Of a stretch of DNA of 23,612 nt, positions 8,527 through 23,612 are shown one piece after another. This DNA is from a virus (taxonomy: Duplodnaviria > Heunggongvirae > Uroviricota > Caudoviricetes). Location: the IMG/VR virus record IMGVR_UViG_2648501338_000019. One strand, written 5' to 3'. A model generated the notes under the pieces. The model was not told the origin of the DNA and searched no databases. It saw nothing but the letters and a program-made list of their open reading frames with translations. The translations under genes were made by a program, and so were the position numbers. The first letter of the stretch is position 1; every line of letters starts with the position of its first letter.

Positions 8527-10431
8527 ATGAAACTGATTTCTAATAAGGCCAAATTAAAAAAGATTCTTAAAAATATCTCTGCGGCAATTCGCCCACCTAA
8601 AACGATGAAACCTAGCGAATGGGTAGAGGCTAATGTAGTTGCAACCGATGGTGTTAAAGCCGGATCTCTAATTAAGTTGCATCCCTTCCAACGTGGAATG
8701 ATGGACGCGATCACCGAAGATAGGCGAAAAATTGTGCTAAAGTGCTCGGCACAGTTGGGTAAAACTCTTGTGCTAAACGGTATTATCTTTCACAGGATCG
8801 CCAGTAACCCTACTAATATCGGTGTTTTGCAAGCGAACGTTCGAGAATTGAACTCATGGATTGCGGGTAAGGTGAAGCCAGTATTAGAGGCAACCCCAGA
8901 ATTAAAGGCGATGATCACCGACAAATCAGATCGCAATGCCGTTAACAACTCATCGATTATTCAGCTTCGTAACGGATCATTCATGTATTTCATGTCGCTG
9001 AACAGTCCATCACACTTGCGCGGTAAGACACTGCCTTTGATTATTCTGGATGAAGTTGATGCGGCTGATGAGTCAGACGAAGGGAACCCGATCCAGCTAG
9101 CGGAACAACGCGCAACCACTTTCGGTGATGATGCAAGGATCGTAATTGCTTCTACTCCAACTTCGCGGGATGGGGCGATAAACCAACAATGGGAACTCTC
9201 GGATAAAAGAAAATACCACGTCGTTTGCCAGCATTGCGGACACAAACACGTAATGGAATGGAGTAGAGTATTCTTTGATTGGCATGTAATCAATGGTAAA
9301 TCACTGCCGAATCCAGACACAGCCGTTTACCGTTGCCCGTCATGTGAAACTGATTGGTCAGAACCAGATCGCCTCCGTGCTGTTGCTCAGGGAGAATGGG
9401 TCGCCACCGAACCAAATGCGGAAGTAATCGGTTTTCATGCTAACCGCCTTATGTCTCCGTTTAGTTCTATCCGTGCGTGTGTGGTGGACTTTGCTGATAG
9501 CTACGCGAATATGTCACTGGCAACGTTCTATAATGTGGTGCTCGGTGAAACCTTCGATGATCTTAACGAAGACCGCACAGCCGACGAACTGGAAACGCTG
9601 AAAACTGACATTAGCTTAGATAATATTCCTGATGATGTTCTGGCTCTGGTAGGTGGAGTTGACCAGCAAAAAGACCGTCTGGAATCTACCTTGCTGGGTA
9701 TCTCTCGTAAGGGGATATGCGTAGTTGATCACCGATCATTCTATGATGTGAACTGCGAACGCCACGAATCGCCAGCATATGACCAGCTTTACAACTTCCT
9801 GAAAGCTAAATTCTATACCCGATCAGGTCAACGAATCCCGATGCTATCTGCTTTCGTGGACTCATCGAACGGACGAGCTACAAACGTGATCTATCGCTTC
9901 TGCACTAGGTGGCAAAACCTATGCGCCATTAAAGGGGCAAGCAATGTTGATGCTCCAATCCTTCCGGTCAAGGACACAAGAACGGGTGGTTTTACTCTTA
10001 AAATTCTGGGCGTAAACAACCTTAAGACGATGATCCGTGAAATGATTAACCGGAACTTGAGAGACAGCGATCCTCATACGGTCTTCCAGATTGGTGACGT
10101 TCCTGATGACTACTGCGAACAATTGTTATCTGAACAGTTGAAACGGCAGGGTAATACCACACGTTGGGTAAAAGTTGGTCAGCAACGAAACGAGGCTCTC
10201 GACTGCCTGGCTTATTCCTATGCTGCTTCTCGCCATGTACTCAATAAAATGTCATGGGAAAAACTCGAAGCCATCAAAGATAGTTTGAACCGCGAACCAG
10301 AAGAACCCGTAGAAGCTCCTAAATCGCAATCTGACGAGCAAATCGAAGAAAATAAGCCAATCACACGACCACAACGTAAAAACATCGCCAGACGCCCAAA
10401 TAGAGGCCGTAGCTGGGTAACATCGTTCTAA
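8527..10431 (+). CDS. terminase large subunit, lambda GpA family
   Basis: 634 aa; Walker A-like KCSAQLGKT, Walker B-like LIILDEVD, and overall length and layout like lambda gpA (N-terminal ATPase, C-terminal nuclease); strong SD. Confidence 0.9.
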   Translation: MKLISNKAKLKKILKNISAAIRPPKTMKPSEWVEANVVATDGVKAGSLIKLHPFQRGMMDAITEDRRKIVLKCSAQLGKTLVLNGIIFHRIASNPTNIGVLQANVRELNSWIAGKVKPVLEATPELKAMITDKSDRNAVNNSSIIQLRNGSFMYFMSLNSPSHLRGKTLPLIILDEVDAADESDEGNPIQLAEQRATTFGDDARIVIASTPTSRDGAINQQWELSDKRKYHVVCQHCGHKHVMEWSRVFFDWHVINGKSLPNPDTAVYRCPSCETDWSEPDRLRAVAQGEWVATEPNAEVIGFHANRLMSPFSSIRACVVDFADSYANMSLATFYNVVLGETFDDLNEDRTADELETLKTDISLDNIPDDVLALVGGVDQQKDRLESTLLGISRKGICVVDHRSFYDVNCERHESPAYDQLYNFLKAKFYTRSGQRIPMLSAFVDSSNGRATNVIYRFCTRWQNLCAIKGASNVDAPILPVKDTRTGGFTLKILGVNNLKTMIREMINRNLRDSDPHTVFQIGDVPDDYCEQLLSEQLKRQGNTTRWVKVGQQRNEALDCLAYSYAASRHVLNKMSWEKLEAIKDSLNREPEEPVEAPKSQSDEQIEENKPITRPQRKNIARRPNRGRSWVTSF

Positions 10432-10503: not shown

Positions 10504-10998
10504 ATGAGTTTAGAACTAATTCCCTTAGTAATTCGTAAAGGCGAAAAAGTCACGCTGGCGAATGAAGAGGGTGTAACAATTCAGGTAGGAAATAATAAAG
10601 GTATTATCTATCAGGTTGATGATTCTCCGGCTAATCATGAGATTAAAACCTTAGATTTTGCCGAAGGTAAATATACCATCGTAATAACTTTGGAAGAAGA
10701 ACTGGTATCAATGCAGGAATTAACTGTTTTGCCAGTATTCGCCAAACAATCCAAAAAAGAATATCTGCGGGAAACTATCGCCTTAATCGAGCAAGTTATT
10801 TTCGCCCGTTTATCTGGGGACGAAGCCGCATTATCTCAAATGACAGTGAAAGGGAATACTTTCGCCTATGAGTCATTGGCTGTTCTCCAGCAATTAAAGA
10901 CTGATTATGAACGTCAGTTATCTAAATTAATTCAAGCCGAACGACGTAAACAGGGAATTAGTCCGATTAAAAATATCAAATTACGTCTTACGCGATAA
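10504..10998 (+). CDS. hypothetical head-module protein (164 aa) in the position lambda gpW occupies between terminase and portal
   Basis: Synteny only; conserved TAAGGGGTAAT initiation motif upstream. Confidence 0.45.
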   Translation: MSLELIPLVIRKGEKVTLANEEGVTIQVGNNKGIIYQVDDSPANHEIKTLDFAEGKYTIVITLEEELVSMQELTVLPVFAKQSKKEYLRETIALIEQVIFARLSGDEAALSQMTVKGNTFAYESLAVLQQLKTDYERQLSKLIQAERRKQGISPIKNIKLRLTR

Positions 10999-11008
10999 GG
11001 GGTAAATC

Positions 11009-12520
11009 ATGTTTAATCTTTTTCGACGCAAAAAGGCGGTAGAAACTCCAGTTAAAACTAATCACCGCCAGCAACAACAAAAAATCTTTATCGACAAACA
11101 AGTAGAAAAATTCCAGAAATCTCTGGCTACTCGAAGTTTAGGTCTGGTTGGTGATCGCATTGATGGATCGCTTCAACAAGATACTATCACAGGAACCTTC
11201 AATAAGGCTCTCAAATCGAATGGTAAGCGCCTTTATGATCAGGGTCGTACTCTGGCCTTAAACACCTCCGTAGGCAGTCGCTACACGCAATACATCACCG
11301 ATATGGTGGTAGGTACTGGCCTAGATCCGAAGCCGTCAGTTGTTAAATCAAATGGAAAACTTGATAGCGCACTGAATAAGCAGATCGAGAATGCTTTCTG
11401 GAAGTGGGCGCAGAATGCTAAACGCTTCTCTCGTAACGGTCGCTTTAACTTCCGTGAATTGCTGGTAATGGCTGAACGTGAGCGCGTTATGGGTGGTGAG
11501 TGCTTCATAGTTTTAACCAAAGAAAACAATGAGTTAAATGTTTCTATCCTGTCTGCTGATAAGTGCGACTGGACGCTCAACCGTGAAGTAAGCAAAGAAC
11601 GCGCTATCTATCAGGGGATCGAGTATGACGTAGAAACAATGCGCCCTGTTGCATTTTGGTTTCGTAAAATCAACCTACTGACTCAGACTTACACAGGTGA
11701 TAACTATCGCGTAGATGCTTCGCAAGTATGTCATTATTATCAACCACTTGCGGCTGAATCTCTGCGTGGTGTGACTGACTTCCTGCCAGTGATTAAGGAT
11801 ATCGCACATCAAGACGCATTCCGCGAAGCTGTACTGGTACATAAACGAATTTCAAGTTGTAGCATGGCGTTCATCGAGCGTCCGAAAGATTCTGGTGACG
11901 ATTTTGATACTGGTGAAGATGATGAACAATATCAAGCGCCGGAAGTTATTCACGATTTCGCGCCAGGTACTATTCAGGAATTACCGGAAGGGGCAACGAT
12001 CAAGAGTATTCAATCCACGCAAAGCGGCGATGACTTTAACAGCTTCAATGATGGAATGTTCACGAGTATAGCGATGGGTCTTGGCGTGTTCAATCAGGGC
12101 TTAACTGGCGATACTAGCCAAATAAATTACAGCGCCGCACGCTACGGCGAATTACTTCAAAGAACGCGCGTTAAAGCACTGCAAAACAAATTGATTGAAA
12201 CAGTGGTATTGCCAATTTTTGAAGCATATCTACGCCATTATTCTGCGCGTGGTATTGTTCCGATTCGTATTACTGCAATTCCGCATATTATCGAGAACAC
12301 TACTATTATTCGTCCTCGTTTTGAATCCGTCGATCCATTTAAAGACGTAAGCGCCGAGATTGCTTTAATTGATAACGGACTTAAATCACGTACTGCCGTT
12401 ATATTAGAACGTGGTGATGATCCTGAAAAAGTATTCTCAGAGATTCAAGCCGAAAAGAGCGCACTAAATATTATCGTTGATGGTGAGAGCAAGGATAACC
12501 CTTCTCAAACCGATCCCTAA
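11009..12520 (+). CDS. portal protein, lambda gpB-like
   Basis: 503 aa directly after the terminase; segments such as FNSFNDGMFTSIAMGLGVFNQGL resemble the lambda gpB core; acidic C-terminal tail. Confidence 0.85.
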   Translation: MFNLFRRKKAVETPVKTNHRQQQQKIFIDKQVEKFQKSLATRSLGLVGDRIDGSLQQDTITGTFNKALKSNGKRLYDQGRTLALNTSVGSRYTQYITDMVVGTGLDPKPSVVKSNGKLDSALNKQIENAFWKWAQNAKRFSRNGRFNFRELLVMAERERVMGGECFIVLTKENNELNVSILSADKCDWTLNREVSKERAIYQGIEYDVETMRPVAFWFRKINLLTQTYTGDNYRVDASQVCHYYQPLAAESLRGVTDFLPVIKDIAHQDAFREAVLVHKRISSCSMAFIERPKDSGDDFDTGEDDEQYQAPEVIHDFAPGTIQELPEGATIKSIQSTQSGDDFNSFNDGMFTSIAMGLGVFNQGLTGDTSQINYSAARYGELLQRTRVKALQNKLIETVVLPIFEAYLRHYSARGIVPIRITAIPHIIENTTIIRPRFESVDPFKDVSAEIALIDNGLKSRTAVILERGDDPEKVFSEIQAEKSALNIIVDGESKDNPSQTDP

Positions 12521-12565
12521 TAACCAACGGGGGCGCAATGCCCCCAATTAATTAAAGGTGATTAA

Positions 12566-14572
12566 ATGCTTAAATTTCGCCGCGATCTTAACGGTTACGG
12601 TGGAGTTATTAACGAAGGGCAGAATGATCAATACGAATTTGAAATTGCTTTCTCCAGTGAACAGCCTTATCAGCGCCAATTCTGGGATGAGCAAAATCAA
12701 GAAATGGTGGTATTAGATGAAATTCTGGTACATACACCGGAAGCGGTTGATCTGTCTCGTCTGAATAATAACGCTCCGTTGCTGTTCAATCATAATTTCG
12801 ATAATCATATTGGTGTCGTTTGTAACGCTCGAATCGATGCGGATAACGTAGGTCGTGCTCTGGTTAAATTCTCTAAGCATGGCACTTTGGCTAATGATAT
12901 TCGTAATAAAGTCATTGAAGGTACGATGGAAAAAATTTCTGTCGGTTATGACATTAAAGAATATCACATCGACTACACCAAAGGACAATTGATTGTTACT
13001 AAATGGATTCCTCACGAGGTTTCATGGGTGTCTGTTCCCGCAGACGACACCGTGGGTCTGAATCGCTCTCTAAATACTATCACAGTTAATTTGGAGGCTA
13101 AACGCGATATGACTAAAGAACAAATCGAAGAAATCAAAGAAGAACAAGAACCCGCTCAGGTTGAAGAAACTCCGGTAGAAGAAAATAAAGAACCGGAAGT
13201 AGAAGAAACTCAAGAGCGCCAAGTTGAAGAGAATAAAGAAGATGAAAATCTCGAAGACGGAAAAGACGCTAAACATCCTGAAAGTGTTGATGATGATAGT
13301 TCAACTGTTCGGGAAACAGAAGAAGTAAAAGAAGAACGTGAAGCCGCTCCGGTTGAAGAAGAAAAAATCGAAGAAGTGGCTGAACGTTCCGAAGAAGACG
13401 AAGAAGAAATCCGAGCAATCGCTCGTGAGTTAAATATTAACGACGAAGAATTAGAACGCGCATTGGCAGTTAAAGATATGACGCCGGAAGCATTCCGCAC
13501 TAAGGCACTAAATAACATTACCAATGCTCAACGTAATAACGAACAAATTAATAAGGAACAAATCATGGAAAAAACTTTCGATCTTAATAACGTAATCCGC
13601 TCCCTGGTAGATGGCGACGTGCTCGGCGCTAACGAAGCTGAATATTCCGCTATGGCTGCTGGTGCTGCAATGCAGCGTGGTCGTGCTGCTCGCGGTGGCT
13701 CTGTATTCGTTCCGGCTGCTGCTCTGCGTGCTGCTTCCGAAGGTAACACCAAAGCTACTCTGACCGCTGTAACCGACGAAAAACTGCTGACCGAATCCTA
13801 TGTAGAAATGCTGCTTCCACAGTCTGTTCTGGGTCGTCTGGGTGTGACTGTTCTGTCTGGTCTGAATAGCCCGATTGCAGTACCAAAAATGACTGCTTCC
13901 AGCGTCGAAGCCTTTGGTTTTGTTGATGAAAATGGAAGTGCCCCCGAATCGAAGGCTAGCTTTGAAAACGTGAAAATGGCTCCGAAAACTTTTGCTGGTG
14001 GCAACCCGATCAGCCGTCAGTCTCTGAAAACTGTTCCGAATATTGCTACCCTGATCACTGATCACATTAACAAATCTGTTCGGATCAAACTGGAACAACT
14101 GATTCTGTCTGACAAAGACAACGAGCGCGGTCCGAAAGGTCTGGTTAAGCAACTGGTAGACGGTGGTCGCGTTACTAAGAAAGCCGCTTTTAGCTACAAA
14201 GACTTCCTGAAAGAAATTGCAGCACTGACCGACGCTGGCGTTCCGGCACAGTCCATCAAGTTTGCAATGAGCGGTGCAACTGCTGCTGAACTGGAATCTA
14301 CCCTGAAAGATAACGGCGTTTCCGGTTATATCATCGAAAACGGCAAACTGGCTGGTTACGATGTAGTTACTTCTGGCGTTATTCCGGCAGACCACATCGT
14401 TCTGGGTGACTTCTCCGGTATCATGATCGGTGAATGGGGTGGTCTGGAACTGGATATGGACGACACCACTTACCGCGCACAGTCTGCTATCGTTCCGCGT
14501 ATCTGGGTAGACCTGGACTTCACCGTAGTTCAGCCGGAAGCTCTGAAAGTTCTTCACATCTCCGCTGAATGA
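12566..14572 (+). CDS. prohead protease - acidic scaffold-like linker - HK97-fold major capsid protein fusion (668 aa); TGA stop
   Basis: N-terminal region resembles HK97-family prohead protease, the middle about 130 aa is E/K-rich (scaffold/delta-like), the C-terminal about 330 aa resembles HK97-type major capsid proteins; lies between portal and neck genes. Confidence 0.8.
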   Translation: MLKFRRDLNGYGGVINEGQNDQYEFEIAFSSEQPYQRQFWDEQNQEMVVLDEILVHTPEAVDLSRLNNNAPLLFNHNFDNHIGVVCNARIDADNVGRALVKFSKHGTLANDIRNKVIEGTMEKISVGYDIKEYHIDYTKGQLIVTKWIPHEVSWVSVPADDTVGLNRSLNTITVNLEAKRDMTKEQIEEIKEEQEPAQVEETPVEENKEPEVEETQERQVEENKEDENLEDGKDAKHPESVDDDSSTVRETEEVKEEREAAPVEEEKIEEVAERSEEDEEEIRAIARELNINDEELERALAVKDMTPEAFRTKALNNITNAQRNNEQINKEQIMEKTFDLNNVIRSLVDGDVLGANEAEYSAMAAGAAMQRGRAARGGSVFVPAAALRAASEGNTKATLTAVTDEKLLTESYVEMLLPQSVLGRLGVTVLSGLNSPIAVPKMTASSVEAFGFVDENGSAPESKASFENVKMAPKTFAGGNPISRQSLKTVPNIATLITDHINKSVRIKLEQLILSDKDNERGPKGLVKQLVDGGRVTKKAAFSYKDFLKEIAALTDAGVPAQSIKFAMSGATAAELESTLKDNGVSGYIIENGKLAGYDVVTSGVIPADHIVLGDFSGIMIGEWGGLELDMDDTTYRAQSAIVPRIWVDLDFTVVQPEALKVLHISAE

Positions 14573-14701
14573 ACTAACGTAGAACCATCTGAACCTTCCC
14601 CCGATTTGGGGGAAGAAAATCTGATTCCATCTCAGGAAGAAGAATCTCAGACGGTTACGGCGAAAGCCACAGTTAAAAAACAACGTAAAACTAAAGAATA
14701 A
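14573..14701 (+). CDS. in-frame 42-codon extension after the capsid gene TGA (TNVEPSEPSPDLGEENLIPSQEEESQTVTAKATVKKQRKTKE, then TAA TAA); candidate readthrough product
   Basis: Frame checked codon by codon; no start codon with an SD inside; homologous to the extension after the major tail gene. Confidence 0.4.
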   Translation, partial: TNVEPSEPSPDLGEENLIPSQEEESQTVTAKATVKKQRKTKE

Positions 14702-14706
14702 TAATT

Positions 14707-14734
14707 AGCCCTGCCTAACGGTGGGGCTTTTTTG
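14707..14734 (+). terminator. rho-independent terminator (AGCCCTGCC-TAAC-GGTGGGGCT + T6)
   Basis: 9-bp stem with two G-U pairs followed by TTTTTTG; near-identical copy after the major tail gene. Confidence 0.8.
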
Positions 14735-14763: not shown

Positions 14764-15054
14764 ATGTTCAAATTATCAGAATCACAATTAAATCGAATGT
14801 TTAAAAGTGCTCCTGTATTTTCGGTGGAAGGTGGTAAATCAATTCGTGCTTACCATGAAATTACTACTACCGACGAATCAGGTGTAATGACAGAAACCGA
14901 ATTTCTATTCTGTCGTGAGGGAGACTTAAAGCAAGGTGATATTGTCACAGTAGAAAACCAGCGTTTCAAAGTTCAATACGTTAAGCGCAATGGTGACAAT
15001 ACTTGTGATTGCTTTATCACTTTAGCAGGGGGTACACATGCTCGCTACCGTTAA
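14764..15054 (+). CDS. putative head-tail adaptor / head completion protein (96 aa)
   Basis: Size and position immediately after the capsid gene; conserved AAAGGGGGTAAC initiation motif. Confidence 0.45.
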   Translation: MFKLSESQLNRMFKSAPVFSVEGGKSIRAYHEITTTDESGVMTETEFLFCREGDLKQGDIVTVENQRFKVQYVKRNGDNTCDCFITLAGGTHARYR

Positions 15055-15460
15055 TAATATGCCGAGACTGAAAATCAAACGCGCCTTGCAAGATATTATC
15101 GAACAAGATTTAGGTCTGGCTTTAAACGTAGAACAAACTCAGCAAGGCTTTAGTGATGACGTGGTTTGTTGGATTACTGGCATGAATGAAACTTATACGC
15201 GTGTTCGTGGTGGTAATGCAATGCAAGCTGAATGCGTTATCGAAATGCAATTATATTCTCAGATTCATGAAACAAAAATCCATGAGGGTATTTGCCAGAT
15301 AATCCAGATTCAGCCGGATAACCCACGATTTAAAGATTTGGGCTTCTCTATTTCAGATATCACTCCAGTAGCTTCTAATACCGATTATGACGATGATTCT
15401 AGTGATGGGGGTATCGTTGGGACACTTAGCCTTAAATTTTCTTATCTAGCGCGTTTTTAA
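15038..15460 (+). CDS. putative neck / tail completion protein (140 aa); overlaps the upstream gene by 17 nt
   Basis: Synteny; SD AGGGGG 6 nt upstream of the ATG; overlap suggests translational coupling. Confidence 0.45.
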   Translation: MLATVNNMPRLKIKRALQDIIEQDLGLALNVEQTQQGFSDDVVCWITGMNETYTRVRGGNAMQAECVIEMQLYSQIHETKIHEGICQIIQIQPDNPRFKDLGFSISDITPVASNTDYDDDSSDGGIVGTLSLKFSYLARF

Positions 15461-15469
15461 GGGGTAATA

Positions 15470-16303
15470 ATGAATATTACACAAGATAACTTAGATATTT
15501 TCACTGGATCACATGTTGAAGTGTCGATCTCTAACCAGATAGACAATCAGGTCGACTTTTTCGATCCTAGCTTTAGTTCTATGGAGAACATCGCAGCATT
15601 CCCTACGCTAACCGAATCCACAGAGATAGAAACTCTGGAAGAGTACGATCAGGACGCTACGGGGAAACTTGCTGGTTATCGTAGACTGGAACCGACAACA
15701 CTCACATTAAACCGTGTTCTTGACGATGAACATCAAGCAATGTTGATGAAAGCGGTAGAGGATAAAACACCTTTACGCTTCCGTATGTTCTATGTTGTGA
15801 ACTCTGGCTATAGTGCTGCTAACACAGGGTACTTTTGTATATTCGATGCTTACGTCACATCACATAAAACCCGTGGTAGTGATAACAAAGCTGTAACACT
15901 GGAATTTAAACTTGAACCAGATGGCGGGATTTTGGCAAGGGGTATTGCTACCGAAGGCCGGATCTTACGTCAGGGTGATTTTGGTTTGGGTGCTGGTGTA
16001 AATCCATTCACGGGTCCGATTGACAGCGAGGCATTAGCCGGAAACCGTTTCGTAACTTACAAGGGAACTGCTAGCGGTAATCCATATTCAACCGACACAG
16101 CATTAATTCACCTTCAAGCTAATGAGCATGGCGCATGGCAATTAACCTGTAATACTTCTGGCGCACCGCGTTTACGTGTCCGAAATATTCAGGAAAACGG
16201 TCGTTCTGAATGGATCAAGGTATATTCCACCAATGAGAAACCGACACCTAGCGAAATTGGCGCAGTGGCTAAGACTGACCGGATCGATTTCGGCGAATAC
16301 TAA
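15470..16303 (+). CDS. hypothetical structural protein (277 aa), candidate collar or fibre-anchoring protein; C-terminus shares the KPTPxE(I/L)G motif with the fibre
   Basis: Located between neck genes and the fibre gene; C-terminal NEKPTPSEIGAVAKTD parallels GDKPTPTELGVYSKAEVD and KKPTPEQLSQGEIA in the fibre. Confidence 0.5.
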   Translation: MNITQDNLDIFTGSHVEVSISNQIDNQVDFFDPSFSSMENIAAFPTLTESTEIETLEEYDQDATGKLAGYRRLEPTTLTLNRVLDDEHQAMLMKAVEDKTPLRFRMFYVVNSGYSAANTGYFCIFDAYVTSHKTRGSDNKAVTLEFKLEPDGGILARGIATEGRILRQGDFGLGAGVNPFTGPIDSEALAGNRFVTYKGTASGNPYSTDTALIHLQANEHGAWQLTCNTSGAPRLRVRNIQENGRSEWIKVYSTNEKPTPSEIGAVAKTDRIDFGEY

Positions 16304-16335
16304 GGATTCTCCTACCTAAATAAAACATGAACGTT

Positions 16336-16368
16336 GGGAGGTTAACGCCTCCCTTATTCCTGTTTTAT
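16336..16368 (+). terminator. stem-loop GGGAGG-TTAACG-CCTCCC followed by a T-rich tract; candidate terminator/attenuator before the fibre gene
   Basis: Perfect 6-bp stem; the downstream TTATTCCTGTTTTA is only moderately U-rich. Confidence 0.4.
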
Positions 16369-16384
16369 AGTGAGGTGATTCTAG

Positions 16385-19300
16385 ATGCAATCAATCCAAT
16401 TTAAACGCACACAGACGGCGGGTAAAAAACCAACGCCGGAACAATTATCACAGGGTGAAATCGCCTTACAGTTGGCGGATCATGTGATTTACACCAAAGA
16501 CAAAAATAATAACGTAGTCCAAATTAGTGTTTCTCCAGAAAAACACGCTGAACTGAATACGAAAGTAGACAATAACAAAACTAGCACTGACCGTGTTATT
16601 GCTTCCAACAAACAAGAAGCCGCTAATAATCTGGCTAGTGCTAAAGCTGAACTGAATCAGACTATCACTTCTACCCGTGATGCTCTCAATGCTTCAATCA
16701 CTGCTGGCGACACCGCAGCCAACAAACGAATTGATGCTTTGACTACCACAGTAGGTAACAATAAAACCGAAGCGGCTAACGCTCTGGCGGCTGCTAAGAC
16801 TGAACTGAATCAGACTATTACTTCAACCCGCGATACTATCAACGCAACAATTAACAAGAACAAGACAGATATTAATGCACGAGTTGATCAGACTAATACC
16901 AACGTTACTAACTTAACGAATACTGTCTCAGCAAATAAATCAGCCATAGAAACGACCGTAGCAAATAATAAACGCGATGCCGACACGAAGATCACCAATC
17001 TTACGGGGACAGTTAATAGCAACCATACAGCAATTAACAACAAGGTAGACCAGAATAAATCTTCTACTGATGCCGCAATTGCCGCAGCTAACCAGCGAAT
17101 TGATTCTATTGAAGGTAGTGCCGATGCTGCTTACATCAAGAAGAATACCAACACTTACCATCACGGCTATCTGTTAACCAAAACAGCTAACTATTTTGAT
17201 GATGCTGGTGCTCGTAACCTTGATTATTTTGGTGCATTCCGTCCAAACAATGCCGAAGGTTGGGGTAACTTAATCCTTAACATTCCTCATTCTGGCGGTA
17301 AAGCACACGGTCGCGGTTTTGAGTTCCACTATGGGTCTAGCTCATCTCAAGTTAAAACCTATGGCTTTGATAAAGATGGTAATAAGCGATTCAGCTACCG
17401 CATGTATCACGAAGGTGATAAGCCGACTCCGACTGAATTGGGTGTGTATAGTAAAGCCGAAGTTGATCAGATGTTCATCAAGAACGTTAGAATGACCGTT
17501 CCTTCTGGTGATGCTACTCGTGGATACTTCAAGATCGCAACCGCTACGATCCCACAGAATGGTCGAATGGTAATGCTTCGTATCTTCGGTGGTAATGGTT
17601 ATAACGTTAACTCTTATGATCAGGTTGACTTTGTAGAAATTGTCATCCGTTCCGGTAACAATAACCCGAAAGGCGTTAGTATTGCTGCTTATCGTCGAAA
17701 TGCTCTGAACGTTCATCAAGTATTTGCGGTTAATACTTCCGGTGATAACTACGATATCTACGTTAACTACGGTCGTTACACCGATAACGTTATTGTCGAA
17801 TACGGTAAAACTGATGGCGTTACTCTGACAGTACATGATGTTCCTGAATTAACTCTCGTTAAACCTTCTGTTGGTGTTACCGATGCTCGTGTTATTACGA
17901 TGTTCAACACCGAAAACAAAGCCGGAACGTTGATGTTTGATAATAACTCACAAGCAACCTATGATATTGTGAGCCTTAATAACGTACCAGACAACAATAA
18001 AAAATATATGCGTAAATTCCGCAGTCGTGCGGCGGAAACAATATGGCATGAAACTGTTCAAGGTGATGTGTATCGTTTGGCTACTGGTTCCACCGACCAA
18101 AAAGAAGTATTAAAAATTGTTGGTAGTGATGGTTTATTTGTCGATAGACTTCATCTGCAAGGCAATAACGCGATTCGTATGTGGCGTCCTACTGGTCGTA
18201 GTAACTATTTTGAATATATGGATCAGCGAGACGGGGCTAATAAACGTCAAGGCTGGTTTGGTTTTGGTTCTACAGATACTAACGATTTTCAATGGTATAG
18301 TGACGAAGGTAAAAACTTTGTTAAATTAGAAGCAAGTGGTCAAGTATCTTTAAGCACAGGTGCTACCAAAATTGTATACACCAATGGTCAATATGTAGCT
18401 GCTAACAGTGATGCATTCCGTATGATTTACGGTAACTATGGTGCATTCTGGCGTAATGATGGTCAAAACGTATATCTTCTGTCTACTGCCGAAAATGATA
18501 AATTTGGTGGTTGGAACGGCTATCGTCCATTCATTTACAATCTGGGTAGCGGTAATGTTACTTTGGGTGGTGATGGTAACGAAGGTGCATTAGTCTTAGA
18601 ACGTGCAAGTCGTGCTGCTCGTTTTGCTGGAAACACATACATTAAAGGCCAATATTTAACATTTGATGCTGGTGCTGGACAATCCCGCGACTATTTCCGT
18701 TTGAGTCATTGGGGCGATAGCAATAACGCTCGTGATAACGTTATACAGCTTGAAGATAGTAAAGGTGCTCACTTCACCACTGAACGTACTTTAGCAACTG
18801 GTGCGATTAAAACTAAATTCTTCGGTGATTTGGAATCTGCTGGTCTGATTCGCTGGGGTAAGGGTACAGCTACTTCTAGTTTCAATATTCGTGCATGGGG
18901 CGCTGATGCTCGTAAACAAGTATTTGAATGTGCTGATGAAAGCGGTTGGCATTGGTATACCCAACGTCCGGGCGGTCCGGGTACTACGGCAATTGAGTTT
19001 GCCATCAACGGTACTGTTAAGCCTCAAGCAATTCACACTGGCGGTAATATCACGCTTAACGGTGCTGATATTGAATTTAAGCGCACTGGTAATAAGCATT
19101 TGTGGTTTAGAGATCCGAATGGCTTAGAACTAGGTTTGATGTATTCCGATGATGCTGGTGTTATTCGCTTCCGTGGTCAGAAACAAGCCCAGACGTGGAA
19201 ACTTGCGGATAAGATGATCCAGTTGGAATCTGGTACTGTAACCGGTGGCGGTAATGGCCTGATTCGTGGTGAAGTTGCTGGCGGTAGTTGGGCTAGCTGG

Positions 19301-19885
19301 CGTGACCGTGCTGCTGGTCTTATGGTTGGGTGTCCTCAATCCACCAACTCGGCACATAACGTATGGAAAGCGACGCATTGGGGTAAATATCACATTGCAG
19401 CAATGGGTGTGCACGTTCCTGACGGTACTATCGGTAACGCTCTTGTTCGTCTCCATGTTCATGATACTAACTTTGACTTTAACGCTGCTGGTGACTTTAC
19501 CGCAGGTCGTAACGGTTCGTTTAACGATGTTTACATTCGCTCTGACTCCCGTTTGAAGATTAACAAGGAAGAATTACAGGACGGCGCATTAGAGAAAGTA
19601 AACTCACTGAAAGTCTACACCTACGATAAAGTTAAATCTCTTAAAGACCGTAGTGTGATTAAACGCGAAGTAGGTATTATTGCTCAGGATCTGGAAGAAG
19701 TATTGCCGGAAGCAGTAGGTATTCAATCCACCGAAGATCCAGAAAATCCAGAAGCAATCAAGACTATTTCTAACTCTGCTGTCAATGCTTTAATCATCAA
19801 AGCTATGCAGGAAATGGACGCCAAATATAAAGCCCAGATCGAAGCATTACAGAAAGAAATTGCCGAACTGAAAGCAACTAAATAA
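16385..19885 (+). CDS. long fibre protein (1166 aa) with a tandemly duplicated N-terminal rod segment and a C-terminal intramolecular chaperone (peptidase S74-like) domain
   Basis: C-terminus RSDSRLKINKEEL...VYTYDKVK...GIIAQDLEEVLPEAV matches the autoproteolytic chaperone domain of phage fibres and tailspikes; N/T/S-rich beta-type sequence in the middle. Confidence 0.85.
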   Translation: MQSIQFKRTQTAGKKPTPEQLSQGEIALQLADHVIYTKDKNNNVVQISVSPEKHAELNTKVDNNKTSTDRVIASNKQEAANNLASAKAELNQTITSTRDALNASITAGDTAANKRIDALTTTVGNNKTEAANALAAAKTELNQTITSTRDTINATINKNKTDINARVDQTNTNVTNLTNTVSANKSAIETTVANNKRDADTKITNLTGTVNSNHTAINNKVDQNKSSTDAAIAAANQRIDSIEGSADAAYIKKNTNTYHHGYLLTKTANYFDDAGARNLDYFGAFRPNNAEGWGNLILNIPHSGGKAHGRGFEFHYGSSSSQVKTYGFDKDGNKRFSYRMYHEGDKPTPTELGVYSKAEVDQMFIKNVRMTVPSGDATRGYFKIATATIPQNGRMVMLRIFGGNGYNVNSYDQVDFVEIVIRSGNNNPKGVSIAAYRRNALNVHQVFAVNTSGDNYDIYVNYGRYTDNVIVEYGKTDGVTLTVHDVPELTLVKPSVGVTDARVITMFNTENKAGTLMFDNNSQATYDIVSLNNVPDNNKKYMRKFRSRAAETIWHETVQGDVYRLATGSTDQKEVLKIVGSDGLFVDRLHLQGNNAIRMWRPTGRSNYFEYMDQRDGANKRQGWFGFGSTDTNDFQWYSDEGKNFVKLEASGQVSLSTGATKIVYTNGQYVAANSDAFRMIYGNYGAFWRNDGQNVYLLSTAENDKFGGWNGYRPFIYNLGSGNVTLGGDGNEGALVLERASRAARFAGNTYIKGQYLTFDAGAGQSRDYFRLSHWGDSNNARDNVIQLEDSKGAHFTTERTLATGAIKTKFFGDLESAGLIRWGKGTATSSFNIRAWGADARKQVFECADESGWHWYTQRPGGPGTTAIEFAINGTVKPQAIHTGGNITLNGADIEFKRTGNKHLWFRDPNGLELGLMYSDDAGVIRFRGQKQAQTWKLADKMIQLESGTVTGGGNGLIRGEVAGGSWASWRDRAAGLMVGCPQSTNSAHNVWKATHWGKYHIAAMGVHVPDGTIGNALVRLHVHDTNFDFNAAGDFTAGRNGSFNDVYIRSDSRLKINKEELQDGALEKVNSLKVYTYDKVKSLKDRSVIKREVGIIAQDLEEVLPEAVGIQSTEDPENPEAIKTISNSAVNALIIKAMQEMDAKYKAQIEALQKEIAELKATK

Positions 19886-19941
19886 TAAAAGTCGGGGGAC
19901 TAGTTCCCCCGTAATAACAATTTTAATTAAGGGGTAATTCT

Positions 19942-20415
19942 ATGTCTCAGCAATTCAAAGATATTTTTACTGGTGGTCTGGTAAGTCTGTTCTATCACGC
20001 GGACACCACTAATACCGCTCTCGACCACGAAAGCTACGAAGAAATTAAAGAGTGTGCTGGTTTTCCTGAAACTGGTATCGAGCGCGGTACTGTAGAAGTT
20101 AAATCCTTCTCTTCTCAGTATAACCGTAAACTGGTAGGGAAGCTGAACGTTCCTGATCTGACTCTGACCGTTAACTACATCCCAGGCGATGCGGTACATG
20201 AAAAACTGATCAAAGCTGCCGAAGACGGTACTCGTATTCAGATTAAAGTAGAATATTACGTTGACGCAGCAAAACAGACTGGTATTCGCACCGCTTTCAA
20301 CGGCTTCATTTCTAAAGTTGCTATGAACGGTGGCGATGAAGAAGTTGTAACCAAAGAGTTTACCTTCGCGGTGGATGGTGCTCCGCTGAAACAGCAAATC
20401 TTCACTGCCGGATGA
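19942..20415 (+). CDS. major tail (tube) protein (157 aa); TGA stop
   Basis: Size, composition and position immediately upstream of the chaperone and tape-measure genes; conserved TTAAGGGGTAAT initiation motif. Confidence 0.7.
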   Translation: MSQQFKDIFTGGLVSLFYHADTTNTALDHESYEEIKECAGFPETGIERGTVEVKSFSSQYNRKLVGKLNVPDLTLTVNYIPGDAVHEKLIKAAEDGTRIQIKVEYYVDAAKQTGIRTAFNGFISKVAMNGGDEEVVTKEFTFAVDGAPLKQQIFTAG

Positions 20416-20535
20416 ACTAACGAAGAACTTCCCGAACCGGAACCACAGCCGGAACATGAAGCGGTGGTGATTCCAGAAGTAGAAGAAGTTACGGCGAAAG
20501 CCACAGCTAAACGAAGCCGCAAGGCTAAAGATTAA
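20416..20535 (+). CDS. in-frame 39-codon extension after the major tail gene TGA (TNEELPEPEPQPEHEAVVIPEVEEVTAKATAKRSRKAKD, then TAA); candidate readthrough product
   Basis: Frame checked codon by codon; shares the opening TGA ACT AAC G and the closing VTAKAT-x-K...RK-x-K motif with the capsid extension. Confidence 0.4.
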   Translation, partial: TNEELPEPEPQPEHEAVVIPEVEEVTAKATAKRSRKAKD

Positions 20536-20540
20536 TTATA

Positions 20541-20570
20541 AGCCCTGCCTTAATGGTGGGGCTTTTTTAT
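20541..20570 (+). terminator. rho-independent terminator (AGCCCTGCC-TTAAT-GGTGGGGCT + T6), homolog of the one at 14707
   Basis: Same stem sequence as the capsid terminator; loop differs by one inserted base. Confidence 0.8.
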
Positions 20571-20583
20571 TGGAGTAATCAAA

Positions 20584-21090
20584 ATGGCGAATGTCGTTAA
20601 TAAGCCTGGCTGGGTCGGGTCATCTGCTGTTTCTGTAACTGGTCAACGATGGATGAGCGCAGCAATGAACGCATTAAAGGTTAGTCGCCCAGCTAACATG
20701 AGTGCGATGTGTGGTCGTGGTATGGATACGGTTGTAGCTACTGCTGCGTGGTCTACTTCATTGGGTAATAACTGGGGTGTAACTGCTTCAAACTATCCAG
20801 TAACTGACATGCGCGGTAAAGGATCTATGGAGAACCCCGAAAACGTGGGCGTAGGGCGTCTGATTGGCGTTATCGTTGGTCAATTCAATGGCGGTACTCC
20901 TACTATGGCTGTATATCTCCAGAACGGTAGAGCGGGGAATATAACCGTTAATTTGGGTGGTGCTGCTGTCACTGTTCCTTATAACAGTATGCAAAGCGGT
21001 TTTCATTACTATTGGTTAAGCAATCCTCCGGCTGCTTTACTCAATAACATTAAGAAGACTGGCACTAAGCAGACTTTGAAAATCTCTTAA
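20584..21090 (+). CDS. hypothetical protein (168 aa), G/S/T/N-rich beta-type; likely minor structural protein or moron between the tail tube and chaperone genes
   Basis: ORF with SD GGAG; no family recognised. Confidence 0.45.
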   Translation: MANVVNKPGWVGSSAVSVTGQRWMSAAMNALKVSRPANMSAMCGRGMDTVVATAAWSTSLGNNWGVTASNYPVTDMRGKGSMENPENVGVGRLIGVIVGQFNGGTPTMAVYLQNGRAGNITVNLGGAAVTVPYNSMQSGFHYYWLSNPPAALLNNIKKTGTKQTLKIS

Positions 21091-21135: not shown

Positions 21136-21444
21136 ATGAATCTGAATGAAATGCTGAAAGCTCTTTCTCCGAAACGTGAATCTTTAACCCTCGGAGGATT
21201 TACGTTCTATGCTCGCCCTATGTCGGTACAAGAATTTAATGAACATGTTTTCAATACTGATAAAAAAGACCGTGATGAACGCTCTATTCTTCGTTGTATT
21301 GAAGATGAAGACGGTAAGCCAGTATTTGAATCTATTGAACAAGTTAAGGCATTGTATACTAGCGTCCGCAGCGAATTAATCGGCTTAGTTGCTCAAGCAT
21401 CATTGATGAAAGATGCGGCGGTAATTGAAAACGAGGTAAAGTAA
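21136..21444 (+). CDS. tail assembly chaperone (lambda gpG-like position)
   Basis: 102-aa ORF directly upstream of the tape measure gene, with an overlapping ORF in the -1 frame, which is the canonical G/GT arrangement. Confidence 0.6.
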   Translation: MNLNEMLKALSPKRESLTLGGFTFYARPMSVQEFNEHVFNTDKKDRDERSILRCIEDEDGKPVFESIEQVKALYTSVRSELIGLVAQASLMKDAAVIENEVK

Positions 21445-21452
21445 ACCCGCTC

Positions 21453-21827
21453 TTGAATTTTTATTTTCGGCAAATGATGCGTCGGGGCTTGAGTAAAGAT
21501 GAGATGGATAATATGCCAATTACGCTATTTTGGGCGTTGCATATATTCGATACATATCTTGAACCACAAAGCCCCCTGTTTCAAGATGCGCGACATGCAC
21601 AGTCGATGTATTACATGCACGTTACATCTCCTAACATGACTCGTGAATGGTTGAATAAAATCAATGTTAACCAATTCCGAATGATTAAGGACGACAAGCA
21701 ATTTAAAACGCAAGAAGAAATAAAAGAAATTGCTCGTAAGAAAGAGGAAGAACGTAACGCTGCTTTGGTTGATAGTTTTTTCGACGCTTCATTATTACAA
21801 AAGCTCAAGAGCGGACAATTGGGGTAA
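21453..21827 (+). CDS. T-like ORF in the -1 frame relative to the chaperone gene; probably expressed only as a G-T fusion via programmed -1 frameshift
   Basis: The -1 frame opens at 21429, 16 nt before the G stop; the track's start at 21453 is a TTG with no SD; ends 3 nt before the tape measure ATG. Confidence 0.5.
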   Translation: MNFYFRQMMRRGLSKDEMDNMPITLFWALHIFDTYLEPQSPLFQDARHAQSMYYMHVTSPNMTREWLNKINVNQFRMIKDDKQFKTQEEIKEIARKKEEERNAALVDSFFDASLLQKLKSGQLG

Positions 21828-21830
21828 TTT

Positions 21831-23612
21831 ATGACAAGACATATAGTAACAATAGAAGGAGATAATGACGGTCTAAGGAGAAGTACCAATCAGGCGATAG
21901 AGATGCTTGATAACCTTTCAGAAAGGGCAATGAATCTTGATTTGTCTGGTGGTTTATCTAGTTTAAGTGGAACCCTTCGCGGAACTGGTGGATCGCTTGC
22001 TTTGGCTGCTGGTGGTTTTGTTGGTTTGGCTGCTGGCGCTATTTCTGCTGCAAATGCCATCGGTGATTATGTAAAGGAATACAGCGAAGTTTCAAAAGCA
22101 ACTGGTTTAACCGTCGAAACACTCCAGAAATTAGAGAAGCAATTCTCCGGTACTGGCTTAACCGTTGAGAAATTTGGTGATATTAACAAAGACACCTTAG
22201 ATAAGCTGGCTGATGCATGGCGTAACGGTGGCGGTATTGAAGACGACCTAGAAAGTGTAGGTTTGAAGATTAAAGATTATGCCGAGTTTATGAACGATCC
22301 ACAAGGCGGGATGAAAGCGGCGATCAAGGTCTTCTATGATATGCGCAAGGCTGGTGCGTCTATCGCTGATGTTAAGTTTATGATGGAATCGTTAGCCAGT
22401 GATTCAAGTCATATGGCTGATGAATTGCAGAAATACGGATCTTATCAGGAAGCTGTAAACGCCATTAATCAGCAAACTGTTAAAATCACCAATGACACAG
22501 CCGAAGAATATAATAAATTCTCTAAAAATATGGATACCCTTACCGATAACTTAAAGGGTATGGCTGCAAATGCACTAAATCCAGTTGTTGAAGGGATGAA
22601 TAATCTTTACAACTGGTTTGATAAAGATTGGGAAAAGACCGCTTTATTCAACGCATTAAAGACTTTTAATGAAAGGTTTGAAAAAGCTCGCCAGAATATG
22701 GCTATGGCTAACGGTGGTTTTATTAACAAGCATGGTTATAGTTCTACTGGTCTAGCGGGTGGACAAGCCAGCTTCAACAATAAACCAAATTATCCTGATC
22801 GTTGGGTGGATAGTGAAGGCGTTACCCGTGATAAAAACGGTGATCCGGTAATTACTATCACTGGAAATAAATCGGATACCGGATTTACCCCAACGGGTCA
22901 AGGTGGAGGCGTCACCGGACCATCGAAAAAAGAACAAGAAGAAGCCAAGAAGAAAGCGGAAGAGGCAGCTAAAAAGGCTAAGGAAGCCGCAGAAAAAGCA
23001 CAGAAAGCACGCGAGGATGCAATCAAGCGACTGAATGCTCTTGATGTTAAATTGCAAGGACAGACAGCCGCGTCTATTGCTTCTCAAAACAAGCAGTTAG
23101 AAGCCAGCTTGAAAGATTTAGACACTGCTTTAGATATGGGCTTAATCTCTCAGCAAGACGCAGCCGCTAAACGTCAGCAACTGTTAGATCAGAACGCAGA
23201 AAACATCTATAAAATGATGTTGGGTGCTGATCCGATTGATGCTCTGAATGCCTTAACAGTTTTGCAACAAATCAGGGACAACGAGCTAGAAAGCCATAAA
23301 CGGTTACTTGATGGTAAAGCTATCTCCTACGAAGAATATATGCGTCGTGTGAATGATACCGAGCAAAACTATTCTCAGATTGATAGTCAGTTACAGGGAA
23401 TGGATGGTTTTAAAACCAATCAATTGACTAATAGCTTAGACTATCAGGATTCAAATAACCCGTTTGCTAAATTTAATGCAATCGATCAAGAGAAATCGGA
23501 AGCTGAACAAGATTATGTGAACCGCCCCGGGTTTCCTGGAGAGTGTTTTATCTGTGAACTCAGGCTGCCAGATCATCGTTTCCGATGGAAGCATAATAAG
23601 CTTTTTCTGCTT
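21831..23612 (+). CDS. tail tape measure protein, 5' portion (open to the end of the window)
   Basis: Open frame of 594 codons with no stop; N-terminal glycine/alanine-rich hydrophobic segment (GGSLALAAGGFVGLAAGAISAANAIG) and a lysine/glutamate-rich coiled coil (KKEQEEAKKKAEEAAKKAKEAAEKAQKARE); canonical position after G/GT. Confidence 0.75.
   Translation, partial: MTRHIVTIEGDNDGLRRSTNQAIEMLDNLSERAMNLDLSGGLSSLSGTLRGTGGSLALAAGGFVGLAAGAISAANAIGDYVKEYSEVSKATGLTVETLQKLEKQFSGTGLTVEKFGDINKDTLDKLADAWRNGGGIEDDLESVGLKIKDYAEFMNDPQGGMKAAIKVFYDMRKAGASIADVKFMMESLASDSSHMADELQKYGSYQEAVNAINQQTVKITNDTAEEYNKFSKNMDTLTDNLKGMAANALNPVVEGMNNLYNWFDKDWEKTALFNALKTFNERFEKARQNMAMANGGFINKHGYSSTGLAGGQASFNNKPNYPDRWVDSEGVTRDKNGDPVITITGNKSDTGFTPTGQGGGVTGPSKKEQEEAKKKAEEAAKKAKEAAEKAQKAREDAIKRLNALDVKLQGQTAASIASQNKQLEASLKDLDTALDMGLISQQDAAAKRQQLLDQNAENIYKMMLGADPIDALNALTVLQQIRDNELESHKRLLDGKAISYEEYMRRVNDTEQNYSQIDSQLQGMDGFKTNQLTNSLDYQDSNNPFAKFNAIDQEKSEAEQDYVNRPGFPGECFICELRLPDHRFRWKHNKLFLL

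Follow-up and report, generated by a model that had tools for sequence, protein, structure and literature searches.

A T-even-type distal fibre set probably anchored by a tail tube protein paralogue in temperate siphophages of enterobacteria

The 23,612-nucleotide stretch of DNA analysed here (IMG/VR record IMGVR_UViG_2648501338_000019; the whole stretch is referred to as the window) carries at positions 15470–19885 two genes of an E. coli prophage, which encode a protein of 277 amino acids (aa) and a fibre of 1166 aa. We consider it fairly probable that these proteins form, together with a 168-aa adhesin encoded further downstream, a jointed side fibre that consists of a tail tube protein paralogue as the anchor, a gp37 homologue and a gp38-type adhesin, and that is held in the tail by a ring of the tube paralogue.

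A preliminary description of this region had already recognised the two open reading frames (ORFs) on the + strand (15470–16303 and 16385–19885), the S74 domain of the fibre, and the location of the fibre gene upstream of the major tail gene (19942–20415) and not after the tape measure gene (starting at 21831), a position unusual for a siphophage fibre. All of this holds in our analysis. The module had also been placed between the head-completion genes and the tube gene, which needs correction, as the two genes directly upstream of the fibre are tail genes, coding for the terminator and for the 277-aa tube-fold protein itself. The identities of the neighbours, i.e. of the terminator, the tube paralogue and the gp38-type adhesin at 20584–21090, were absent from that description. 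The elements of the proposed fibre system are as follows.

15470–16303, + strand: 277-aa anchor protein
15470–15949, + strand: anchor domain (aa 1–160 of the 277-aa protein), probable tube-fold paralogue of the 157-aa tube protein
15950–16303, + strand: gp36-type connector end (aa 161–277)
16385–19885, + strand: 1166-aa fibre
16385–16537, + strand: predicted docking domain (fibre aa 1–51), starting with MQSIQFKRTQTAGKKPTPEQLSQGEIALQLADHVIYTKD, delimited by alignment with the RB49 gp37 N-terminus
16538–17167, + strand: variable spacer of ~210 aa (fibre aa 52–261), coiled-coil-like, a gap in the alignment with RB49 gp37
17168–19885, + strand: gp37-type shaft and tip with the S74 chaperone (fibre aa 262–1166)
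19942–20415, + strand: major tail tube protein (TTP), 157 aa (phrog_158)
20584–21090, + strand: gp38-type adhesin, 168 aa (Gp38_N, phrog_1121)

Results

The 277-aa protein

Residues 1–160 of the 277-aa protein appear, from both the alignment and the structural model, to be a diverged duplicate of the phage's own TTP. In the BLASTP comparison the two proteins are 30% identical over 163 columns (E 1e-14); the alignment is collinear, with gaps of 3 residues at most, and the N-terminal arm (N-arm), the loop and the long hairpin are all kept. The N-arm motif DIFxG is the best-conserved element common to the two paralogue families. The 277-aa protein also matches the phrog_158 'major tail protein' family (E 1.3e-8). 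In the AlphaFold2 (AF2) model residues 15–160 are predicted confidently and adopt the fold of a tube protein (beta-sandwich, flanking helix and long hairpin); from residue 163 onwards the predicted local distance difference test score (pLDDT) is below 50. The top Foldseek matches of the anchor domain in the PDB are gpV of phage lambda (7t4f/8k36) and the TTPs of 80alpha, YDC107 and monocin (E ~1e-7), and Hcp is found as well; among the BFVD matches, many of which are unnamed, every named source is a major tail or tube protein. The search of PDB sequences with a profile of the 277-aa family and the NCBIfam scan of all the module proteins and two distant relatives returned no match.

Among close prophages the ratio of nonsynonymous to synonymous substitution rates (dN/dS) is 0.13 in the anchor half of the gene and also in its gp36-type half. 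The close homologues of the protein (275–281 aa, 49–97% identity) come from E. coli, Shigella, Salmonella, Providencia, Edwardsiella and Proteus. These data bear on the reading that the gene is a relic without function, a degenerate copy of the tube gene that by accident became joined to a fragment of a fibre. The disruption of the present prophage copy by the insertion sequence IS629 and the absence of Pfam and NCBIfam matches for the 277-aa protein would fit such a relic. However, the length and sequence are kept across all the bacteria listed, the dN/dS is low, the architecture recurs in more than 100 clusters (50% identity), and the position is constant in the sampled loci. The pseudogene reading was dismissed on the dN/dS value and the conservation, and is to our mind hardly credible.

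The remaining part of the protein resembles the C-terminal end of gp36 of the T-even phages. Residues 180–277 align with the last 100 residues of RB49 gp36 (31% identity over 105 columns, E 1e-5), and the protein ends with ...STNEKPTPSEIGAVAKTDRIDFGEY, which includes the C-terminal tail of gp36 type ...AVAKTDRIDFGEY; the corresponding end of RB49 gp36 is ...KPTPADVGAVPLNAVIDFGTF (...YHEGNKPTPADVGAVPLNAVIDFGTF). The terminal residues are thus IDFGEY in the 277-aa protein and IDFGTF in RB49, and the T4 gp36 terminus is ...SVQDFGYY, so that both the C-terminal domain and the ...DFGxY/F tail of gp36 are present. This tail (KTDRIDFGEY, 16271–16300) is conserved in every 'stub-type' relative. The N-terminal gp36 domain PF03903 was not found in the 277-aa protein by Pfam search, and the Pfam and PHROG scans of ORFs of the window brought up no gp35-like product; the protein is therefore not a gp36 orthologue and has only the C-terminal end of gp36. 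A longer relative, P0084, does match Pfam Phage_T4_gp36 and phrog_1425 'distal connector'.

The fibre and the joint

The 1166-aa fibre is by sequence comparison a gp37 homologue that includes the docking N-terminus. Residues 262–1163 are 72% identical to RB49 gp37 over 911 columns, and residues 1–51 align with the N-terminus of the same protein (LSRIQFKRTSTKGRRPDAGTMNPGELAINLAD) with 37% identity (E 4e-9). The fibre starts with MQSIQFKRT...GEIALQLAD, a motif also carried by the N-terminus of T4 gp37, and this gp37-type docking N-terminus is kept in the downstream fibre of every two-gene relative compared. The fibre belongs to phrog_1699 (E 7e-137) and contains a Gp34_trimer match at aa 608–718. 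Near its C-terminus, at aa 1053–1111, lies a Peptidase_S74 chaperone domain (PF13884; E 8.5e-14, 52 bits against a cut-off of 22), the autocleavage of which is predicted.

Fibre residues 52–261 have no counterpart in RB49 gp37. A weak match to an Apolipoprotein-like helical repeat covers aa 69–222, and the segment looks like a coiled coil. Among close prophages the identity of this spacer varies from 46% to 100%, and the fibre length changes. Within the fibre gene, the ~2.5 kb at 17219–19816 are ~80% identical at the DNA level to gp37 of virulent Krischvirus (RB49-like) myophages, which indicates that a virulent lineage of T-even phages and a temperate siphophage exchanged fibre DNA fairly recently.

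In the T-even fibre the chains run parallel, and the C-terminus of gp36 abuts the N-terminus of gp37. The 277-aa protein and the fibre have complementary ends of just these two types and so belong to one system, as the preliminary description had supposed in proposing a common attachment module; the motif KPTPxE(I/L)G, which it had taken for the shared element, does not have this role. Of the three copies claimed, two are exact, one in each protein: EKPTPSEIG at 16238–16261 (aa 257 of the 277-aa protein, nt 16238) and DKPTPTELG at 17420–17443 (fibre aa 346, nt 17420); the third site, at fibre aa 15 (KKPTPEQLSQGE), has only KPTP in common with them. Of 20000 shuffles that preserved the composition, none placed KPTP in both proteins, and the sharing is thus not due to chance. 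RB49, however, has the motif in four copies in gp36 and in one copy, at the homologous place, in gp37, and it is accordingly a generic repeat-boundary motif of T-even long tail fibres and not a docking element. A search for a domain shared by both proteins, with the profile of the 277-aa family against fibre aa 240–372, gave a match of only ~31 residues with a probability of 17%, and this candidate was rejected. The likely joint is the gp36-type tail of the 277-aa protein together with the gp37-type N-terminus of the fibre. The order of components in the T4 long tail fibre is gp34, gp35, the gp36 trimer and gp37 (PMC5537660).

The gp38-type adhesin

The 168-aa protein is, judging by its sequence matches, a tail fibre adhesin of gp38 type: it contains Gp38_N (E 1.9e-15, 57 bits against a cut-off of 25), matches phrog_1121 'tail fiber adhesin' (E 3.3e-33) and shares 71% identity with RB49 gp38 in its first 42 aa. 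Its nearest full-length relatives are adhesins of Shiga toxin (Stx) phages, 44% identical over the whole protein. The gp38 proteins of S16 and T2 are about 250–260 aa long. In the more distant loci L042–L047 a gp38 homologue of 256–293 aa (compared to 168 here) follows the fibre gene directly (~12530–13740); in the window's clade the gp38-type gene stands after the tube gene, which points to a local rearrangement that split the fibre–adhesin pair. In a sister clade, that of L025 (12357–13263) and L028–L039, three tandem paralogous ORFs of ~100 aa (W..FDIPNGW) replace gp38 and are situated between the fibre and tube genes.

Distribution of the anchor family

When 1.84 billion cluster representatives were searched with a profile, 275 matched, 142 of them with E <1e-10 and 20 with E <1e-30; over 100 protein clusters, defined at 50% identity, contain the anchor. 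The proteins of the nearest group (275–1209 aa) always end in ...[IVL]D[FLA]G[ET][YF]. In the fetched close loci, to which the two-gene statement refers, a separate fibre follows the anchor (close E. coli prophages, L002, L040–L049 and L059); the N-termini of the fibres were compared in the close E. coli prophages, L002 and L040–L049. About 120 more distant representatives, 560–1563 aa long, have the same N-terminal anchor and a shoulder domain joined to a complete fibre. The tips of those compared with Pfam are of S74, pyocin-knob (Phage_tail_C_2) or Collar type, and a separate fibre gene is absent from the distant-fusion loci examined. Over the anchor of the long fusions (the first ~250 residues) no Pfam, NCBIfam or PHROG family was found. 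The sources of the distant representatives include Serratia, Rouxiella, Kluyvera and Leclercia, among others. In all 49 viral-contig loci and all five distant loci of the sample the order is conserved: terminator, anchor or anchor::fibre, separate distal fibre (where present), tip accessory gene (where present), tube protein, chaperones and tape measure.

When the 277-aa protein and a distant anchor domain were compared by tblastn with 50,697 phage records, the only match was PQ671644 (DCP80). This record (PQ671644.1, Escherichia phage DCP80; our locus L002), 141 kb long, is classified as a T4-like Gaprivervirus, and its positions 1–21560 are a structural module of the siphophage family considered here, encoding an anchor::fibre (699 aa), a distal fibre (745 aa) and a tube protein (164 aa). 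Since a siphophage module of ~22 kb opens a T4-like record, the record is probably chimeric. A fibre fused to a tube-fold domain was not found described in the literature covered (open-access papers and bioRxiv). The proposed fibre attachment through a duplicated tube protein would be common in enterobacterial prophages, and we found no published description of it.

Neighbouring genes and the prophage

The late operon of the E. coli prophage occupies the + strand of the window from 8.5 kb onward. The segment 14700–17200 is present in 54 of 5426 complete E. coli genomes and is chromosomal every time; in strain GN4741 the prophage adjoins tRNA-Ser, ghrA and ycdX. The other features of the window are listed below.

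8527–10431, + strand: large terminase
10504–10998, + strand: head-tail joining protein, 164 aa, in the adaptor position
11009–12520, + strand: portal
12566–14572, + strand: protease-capsid fusion, 668 aa
14764–15054, + strand: FII-like protein, 96 aa (Phage_attach, 24.4 bits, slightly below the cut-off)
15038–15460, + strand: probable tail terminator, 140 aa, directly upstream of the fibre module (AF2 model and Foldseek)
20416–20532, + strand: in-frame 39-codon extension after the TGA of the tube gene, with its stop at 20533–20535
20540–20564, + strand: intrinsic terminator hairpin after the tube extension
21136–21827, + strand: pair of tail assembly chaperones, 102 aa and 124 aa (phrog_344, E 1.8e-7, for the first protein)
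21831–23516, + strand: tape measure gene, truncated here (intact 785-aa ORF in L003)
23517–23612, no strand assigned: end of IS629 (IS3 family) inside the tape measure gene, 99–100% identical to IS629 copies in Stx phages

The 140-aa protein is, to judge from its AF2 model (pLDDT 78), the tail terminator: its best Foldseek matches in the PDB are the terminators of the NF5 neck, T5 (p142) and lambda (gpU, 3fzb), with E values of ~1e-6. With the 164-aa protein in the adaptor position, the 96-aa FII-like protein and this terminator, the connector (neck) set is complete without the fibre module. With a strong terminator after its gene, as after that of the capsid, the 157-aa protein (phrog_158, E 3.1e-21; Phage_TTP_11, 28.3 bits with the cut-off at 28.4) is the tube subunit made in abundance. 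The chaperone pair keeps its conserved position preceding the tape measure gene. In the intact relatives, genes for a 186-aa distal tail protein (Dit), DUF2163, DUF6950 and a tail tip protein of ~1260 aa are found downstream of the gene for the tape measure protein.

The 668-aa fusion consists of a Peptidase_S78 prohead protease (aa 40–162) and a Phage_capsid domain (aa 410–664) joined by an acidic linker, and its nearest cultured relatives (phiHAP-1, R4C and RcCronus) are only ~30% identical. G+C-rich hairpins are located directly after the 277-aa gene (16336–16353) and after the fibre gene (19891–19911), and behind each of them the next gene has a good ribosome-binding site; these hairpins might act as attenuators or as elements of RNA stability and so determine the anchor:fibre:tube ratio.

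IS629 takes up the terminal ~96 bases of the window and is inserted after approximately codon 562 of the tape measure gene. The window departs at ~23517 from L003, which is otherwise identical and has an intact tape measure gene (785 aa). With its tape measure gene broken by IS629, the prophage copy in the window is probably defective and makes no tails.

Candidate stop-codon readthrough

In the capsid gene as well as in the tube gene the stop is TGA followed by ACTAAC, and the frame then remains open (14570–14706 and 20413–20535), for 42 and 39 codons, respectively. The two extensions are acidic and rich in proline, and each has a basic tail ...TAKATxK(K/R)xRK(T/A)K(E/D) just before a terminator hairpin. 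If TGA is conceptually read through as W, the sequences are ...IFTAG-W-TNEELPEPEPQPEH and ...HISAE-W-TNVEPSEPSPD. The hairpins, AGCCCTGCC..GGTGGGGCT with a T run, are strong and nearly identical (14707–14728 after the capsid gene, 20540–20564 after the tube gene), and the cassette of extension plus hairpin is homologous at the DNA level between the two sites. In ~37 related loci the stop codon is in every case TGA with an A after it, and the frame is kept in all length variants (28, 33 and 42–45 codons for the capsid gene; 36, 39 and 41 codons for the tube gene); alleles ending in TAA have no extension. Such is the tube gene of the L025/L028–L039 clade, another allele with 58% identity and a TAA stop. 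These features make programmed readthrough of the stop codon a candidate mechanism, which would yield capsid and tube proteins with extensions.

Discussion

Proposed mechanism

In the mechanism we propose, the 277-aa protein would be the anchor, with the tube-protein duplicate in front and the gp36 connector end behind. Three anchor chains would trimerise via their gp36-like ends, and the N-terminus of the fibre would dock onto them end-to-end, like gp37 on gp36 in T4-like phages. The ~210-aa coiled coil would lengthen the reach of the fibre, the S74 domain would fold the fibre trimer and then be removed by cleavage, and the 168-aa gp38-type adhesin would cap the tip and bind the receptor. The three tube-fold domains of one fibre would make up half of a hexameric tube ring, with two fibres per ring. 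In the family at large, a single polypeptide contains the tube subunit and either the fibre or the first segment of it, and the fibres would accordingly be covalently part of the tube wall; we lean, with some caution, towards the existence of such a dedicated tube-paralogue ring in widespread uncultured temperate siphophages of enterobacteria. The analysis establishes what the parts are and to what they are homologous, the constancy of the gene order, the purifying selection and the wide occurrence of the anchor; we infer the gp36/gp37-type joint, the incorporation into a ring, the stoichiometry and the location.

Several points weigh against this interpretation. The location of the tube-fold domain inside the tube wall is what we infer from the alignment and the model, and the signs of hexameric stacking around the tape measure protein are indirect, namely the retention of the N-arm, the loop, the hairpin and DIFxG. 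Three tube domains per trimeric fibre map awkwardly onto a six-fold ring. The 277-aa protein falls below every Pfam threshold and has no match in NCBIfam either, and its C-terminal domain is modelled at a pLDDT below 50, so that trimerisation is suggested by homology only. The anchor is ~85% identical across prophages whose TTP allele is only 58% identical, i.e. tight co-evolution of the anchor with the TTP is not seen. The tape measure gene of this copy is disrupted by IS629, the family being intact elsewhere (L001, L003). Finally, the family is known from genes alone, and the clearly genuine cultured-phage records among the 50,697 searched hold none of its members.

Position of the ring

We tentatively place the ring at the tail's distal end, where it would be the first one on the distal tail protein and would act like a second Dit with the fibre as its peripheral domain, and this placement is itself somewhat doubtful. 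In the relatives the total fibre length varies ~2.5-fold, from 672 to ~1700 aa, and the length of the tape measure protein is constant at 726–804 aa, a weak pointer to the distal ring over the neck. The preliminary description had suggested the latter, comparing the module with collar or neck whiskers. The anchor ring would then be the last in the tube, right under the terminator, and the fibres would hang as whiskers at the head–tail junction. In its favour, the gene order is terminator, anchor, fibre and TTP, and in structural modules of siphophages the order often mirrors the position. The fibre of the window, ~1440 aa in total with the 210-aa coiled coil, would measure roughly 90–100 nm, comparable to a tail of ~118 nm (785-aa tape measure), both lengths being our own estimates from residues per nm. 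The order, however, is already explained by a tandem duplication of the adjacent tube gene and is therefore not evidence for the neck. Fibres as short as 672 aa occur at equal tape measure length; many would be too short to span the distance from the neck to the tip, which makes the neck ring less fitting. The module proteins matched no collar or whisker (fibritin-type) family in Pfam and PHROG scans, the anchor is a tube paralogue, and the connector set is complete without it. We know of no mechanism that would place a tube paralogue solely at the end of polymerisation. The neck position seems rather unlikely to us, if only a little less likely than the distal one.

Alternatively, pre-formed fibre trimers might co-polymerise with the TTP anywhere along the tail, which would then carry a few fibres at random heights. 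The anchor retains every tube-forming element of the TTP and the N-arm motif, and decorated and plain tube subunits do mix in the siphophages SPP1, PSA and p2. In these precedents (SPP1 gp17.1*, PSA Tsh-L and TpeX), however, the tube domains are identical, compared to 30% identity here, and an anchor that stays ~85% identical as the TTP changes to 58% is a misfit for a subunit contacting the TTP all round. We regard this stochastic decoration as unlikely. The co-variation of anchor alleles with those of the terminator and of the TTP in mosaic prophages was also tried as a locator of the ring and was uninformative: in L020 the terminator is 47% and the anchor 95% identical, and in the L025 clade the TTP is 58% and the anchor 85% identical.

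The tube-fold domain might also lie outside the tube, as an external adaptor on the tube, the terminator or Dit, or serve merely for assembly. The mismatch between three-fold and six-fold symmetry and the low identity to the TTP would be accommodated in this way, and external rings of small domains around tube-fold rings attach side fibres in Ur-lambda, T5 and F-pyocin (PMC13455828). Against this stand the full TTP fold that has been kept, the N-arm and the long hairpin, which are sensible only as ring and stack contacts, and the strong purifying selection on the anchor domain. We find this location very unlikely.

Comparison with known systems

The architecture is a variation on decorated tube proteins, Dit-type platforms and the jointed fibres of the T-even phages. 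With the gp36–gp37–gp38 system of RB49, T2 and S16 it shares the gp37 body (72% identical), the Gp34_trimer-like domain, the S74 chaperone, the gp37 docking motif, the gp36-like end of the 277-aa protein and a gp38-type adhesin with Gp38_N. Unlike the T-even set, it has no gp34, gp35 hinge or baseplate, and its gp36-type end is fused to a tube-fold domain. The fibre contains an additional segment of ~210 aa that is probably a coiled coil; the gp38 homologue is short (168 aa) and resembles Stx adhesins in its C-terminal part, and the tube gene stands between its gene and that of the fibre. The set is carried by a temperate siphophage and not by a myophage.

In lambda gpV (with its immunoglobulin (Ig) domain), SPP1 gp17.1*, Listeria PSA Tsh-L and lactococcal TpeX, a tube domain bears a C-terminal extension that is directed outward and thought to aid adsorption. 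The proposed anchor is similar in having a tube-fold domain, with a fold match to gpV, followed by a C-terminal outward extension. In the decorated proteins, however, small monomeric Ig or fibronectin type III (FN3) domains are carried by the major tube protein or by a frameshift product with an identical tube domain, whereas here a separate paralogue (30% identity) bears a segment of a trimeric fibre or an entire fibre, up to ~1400 aa long.

The known anchors of side fibres comprise a galectin loop of Dit in the monocin, a ring of Ig domains around Dit in Ur-lambda, a tube-fold ring with an Ig collar in T5 and the shaft of the central fibre in F-pyocin (PMC13455828). None of the anchors summarised there is a tube-fold domain to which the fibre is covalently fused (PMC13455828). 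Dit and the p140 ring with the p132 collar of T5 resemble the proposed ring in that an axial tube-fold ring serves as the platform for lateral fibres (PMC13455828), but the fibres are attached there non-covalently, through the galectin-domain loop, the Ig ring or the collar, and here they would belong to the same polypeptide. The phage family considered here has in addition a separate ordinary Dit of 186 aa, with a DTP-pb9_B-dom match in relatives; in L001, the prophage of strain GN4741, it is encoded at 25635–26195.

In type VI secretion, specialised Hcp paralogs carry C-terminal effectors while a plain paralogue builds most of the tube. This is a different machine, in which the extension of Hcp is no receptor-binding fibre but a toxin that is delivered along with the tube. 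Collar and neck fibres (T4 fibritin, the lactococcal neck passage structure and Anabaena A-1(L)) are similar in being accessory fibres encoded away from the tip genes; they anchor on neck or connector proteins, unlike the tube paralogue here.

Significance

The ways in which side fibres are fastened to non-contractile tails are known for a handful of phages, and each new structure has turned out to be a different solution. The sequences alone point to a further one, in which a paralogue of the tube protein serves as the covalent anchor. If this is true, it would be the fifth mode of side-fibre attachment beside the Dit loop, the Ig ring, the T5 collar and the central-fibre shaft, and would pose a new symmetry problem, that of three tube domains per fibre in a six-fold ring. 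For annotation, the analysis suggests a rule by which proteins called 'hypothetical' or 'tail fiber' can be divided into an anchor, a gp36-type joint and a gp37-type fibre. The natural joint ...IDFGEY / IQFKR...GE is a possible graft point for mounting T-even fibres on a siphophage or tailocin chassis.

The T-even distal fibre set carried by a siphophage via a tube paralogue is widespread and structurally unexplored. The exchange of fibre DNA between Krischvirus and temperate prophages, visible at ~80% identity, matters for the prediction of host range, and, if the proposed mechanism is true, whole T-even distal sets (the gp36 end, gp37 and gp38) would be swappable between virulent myophages and prophages.

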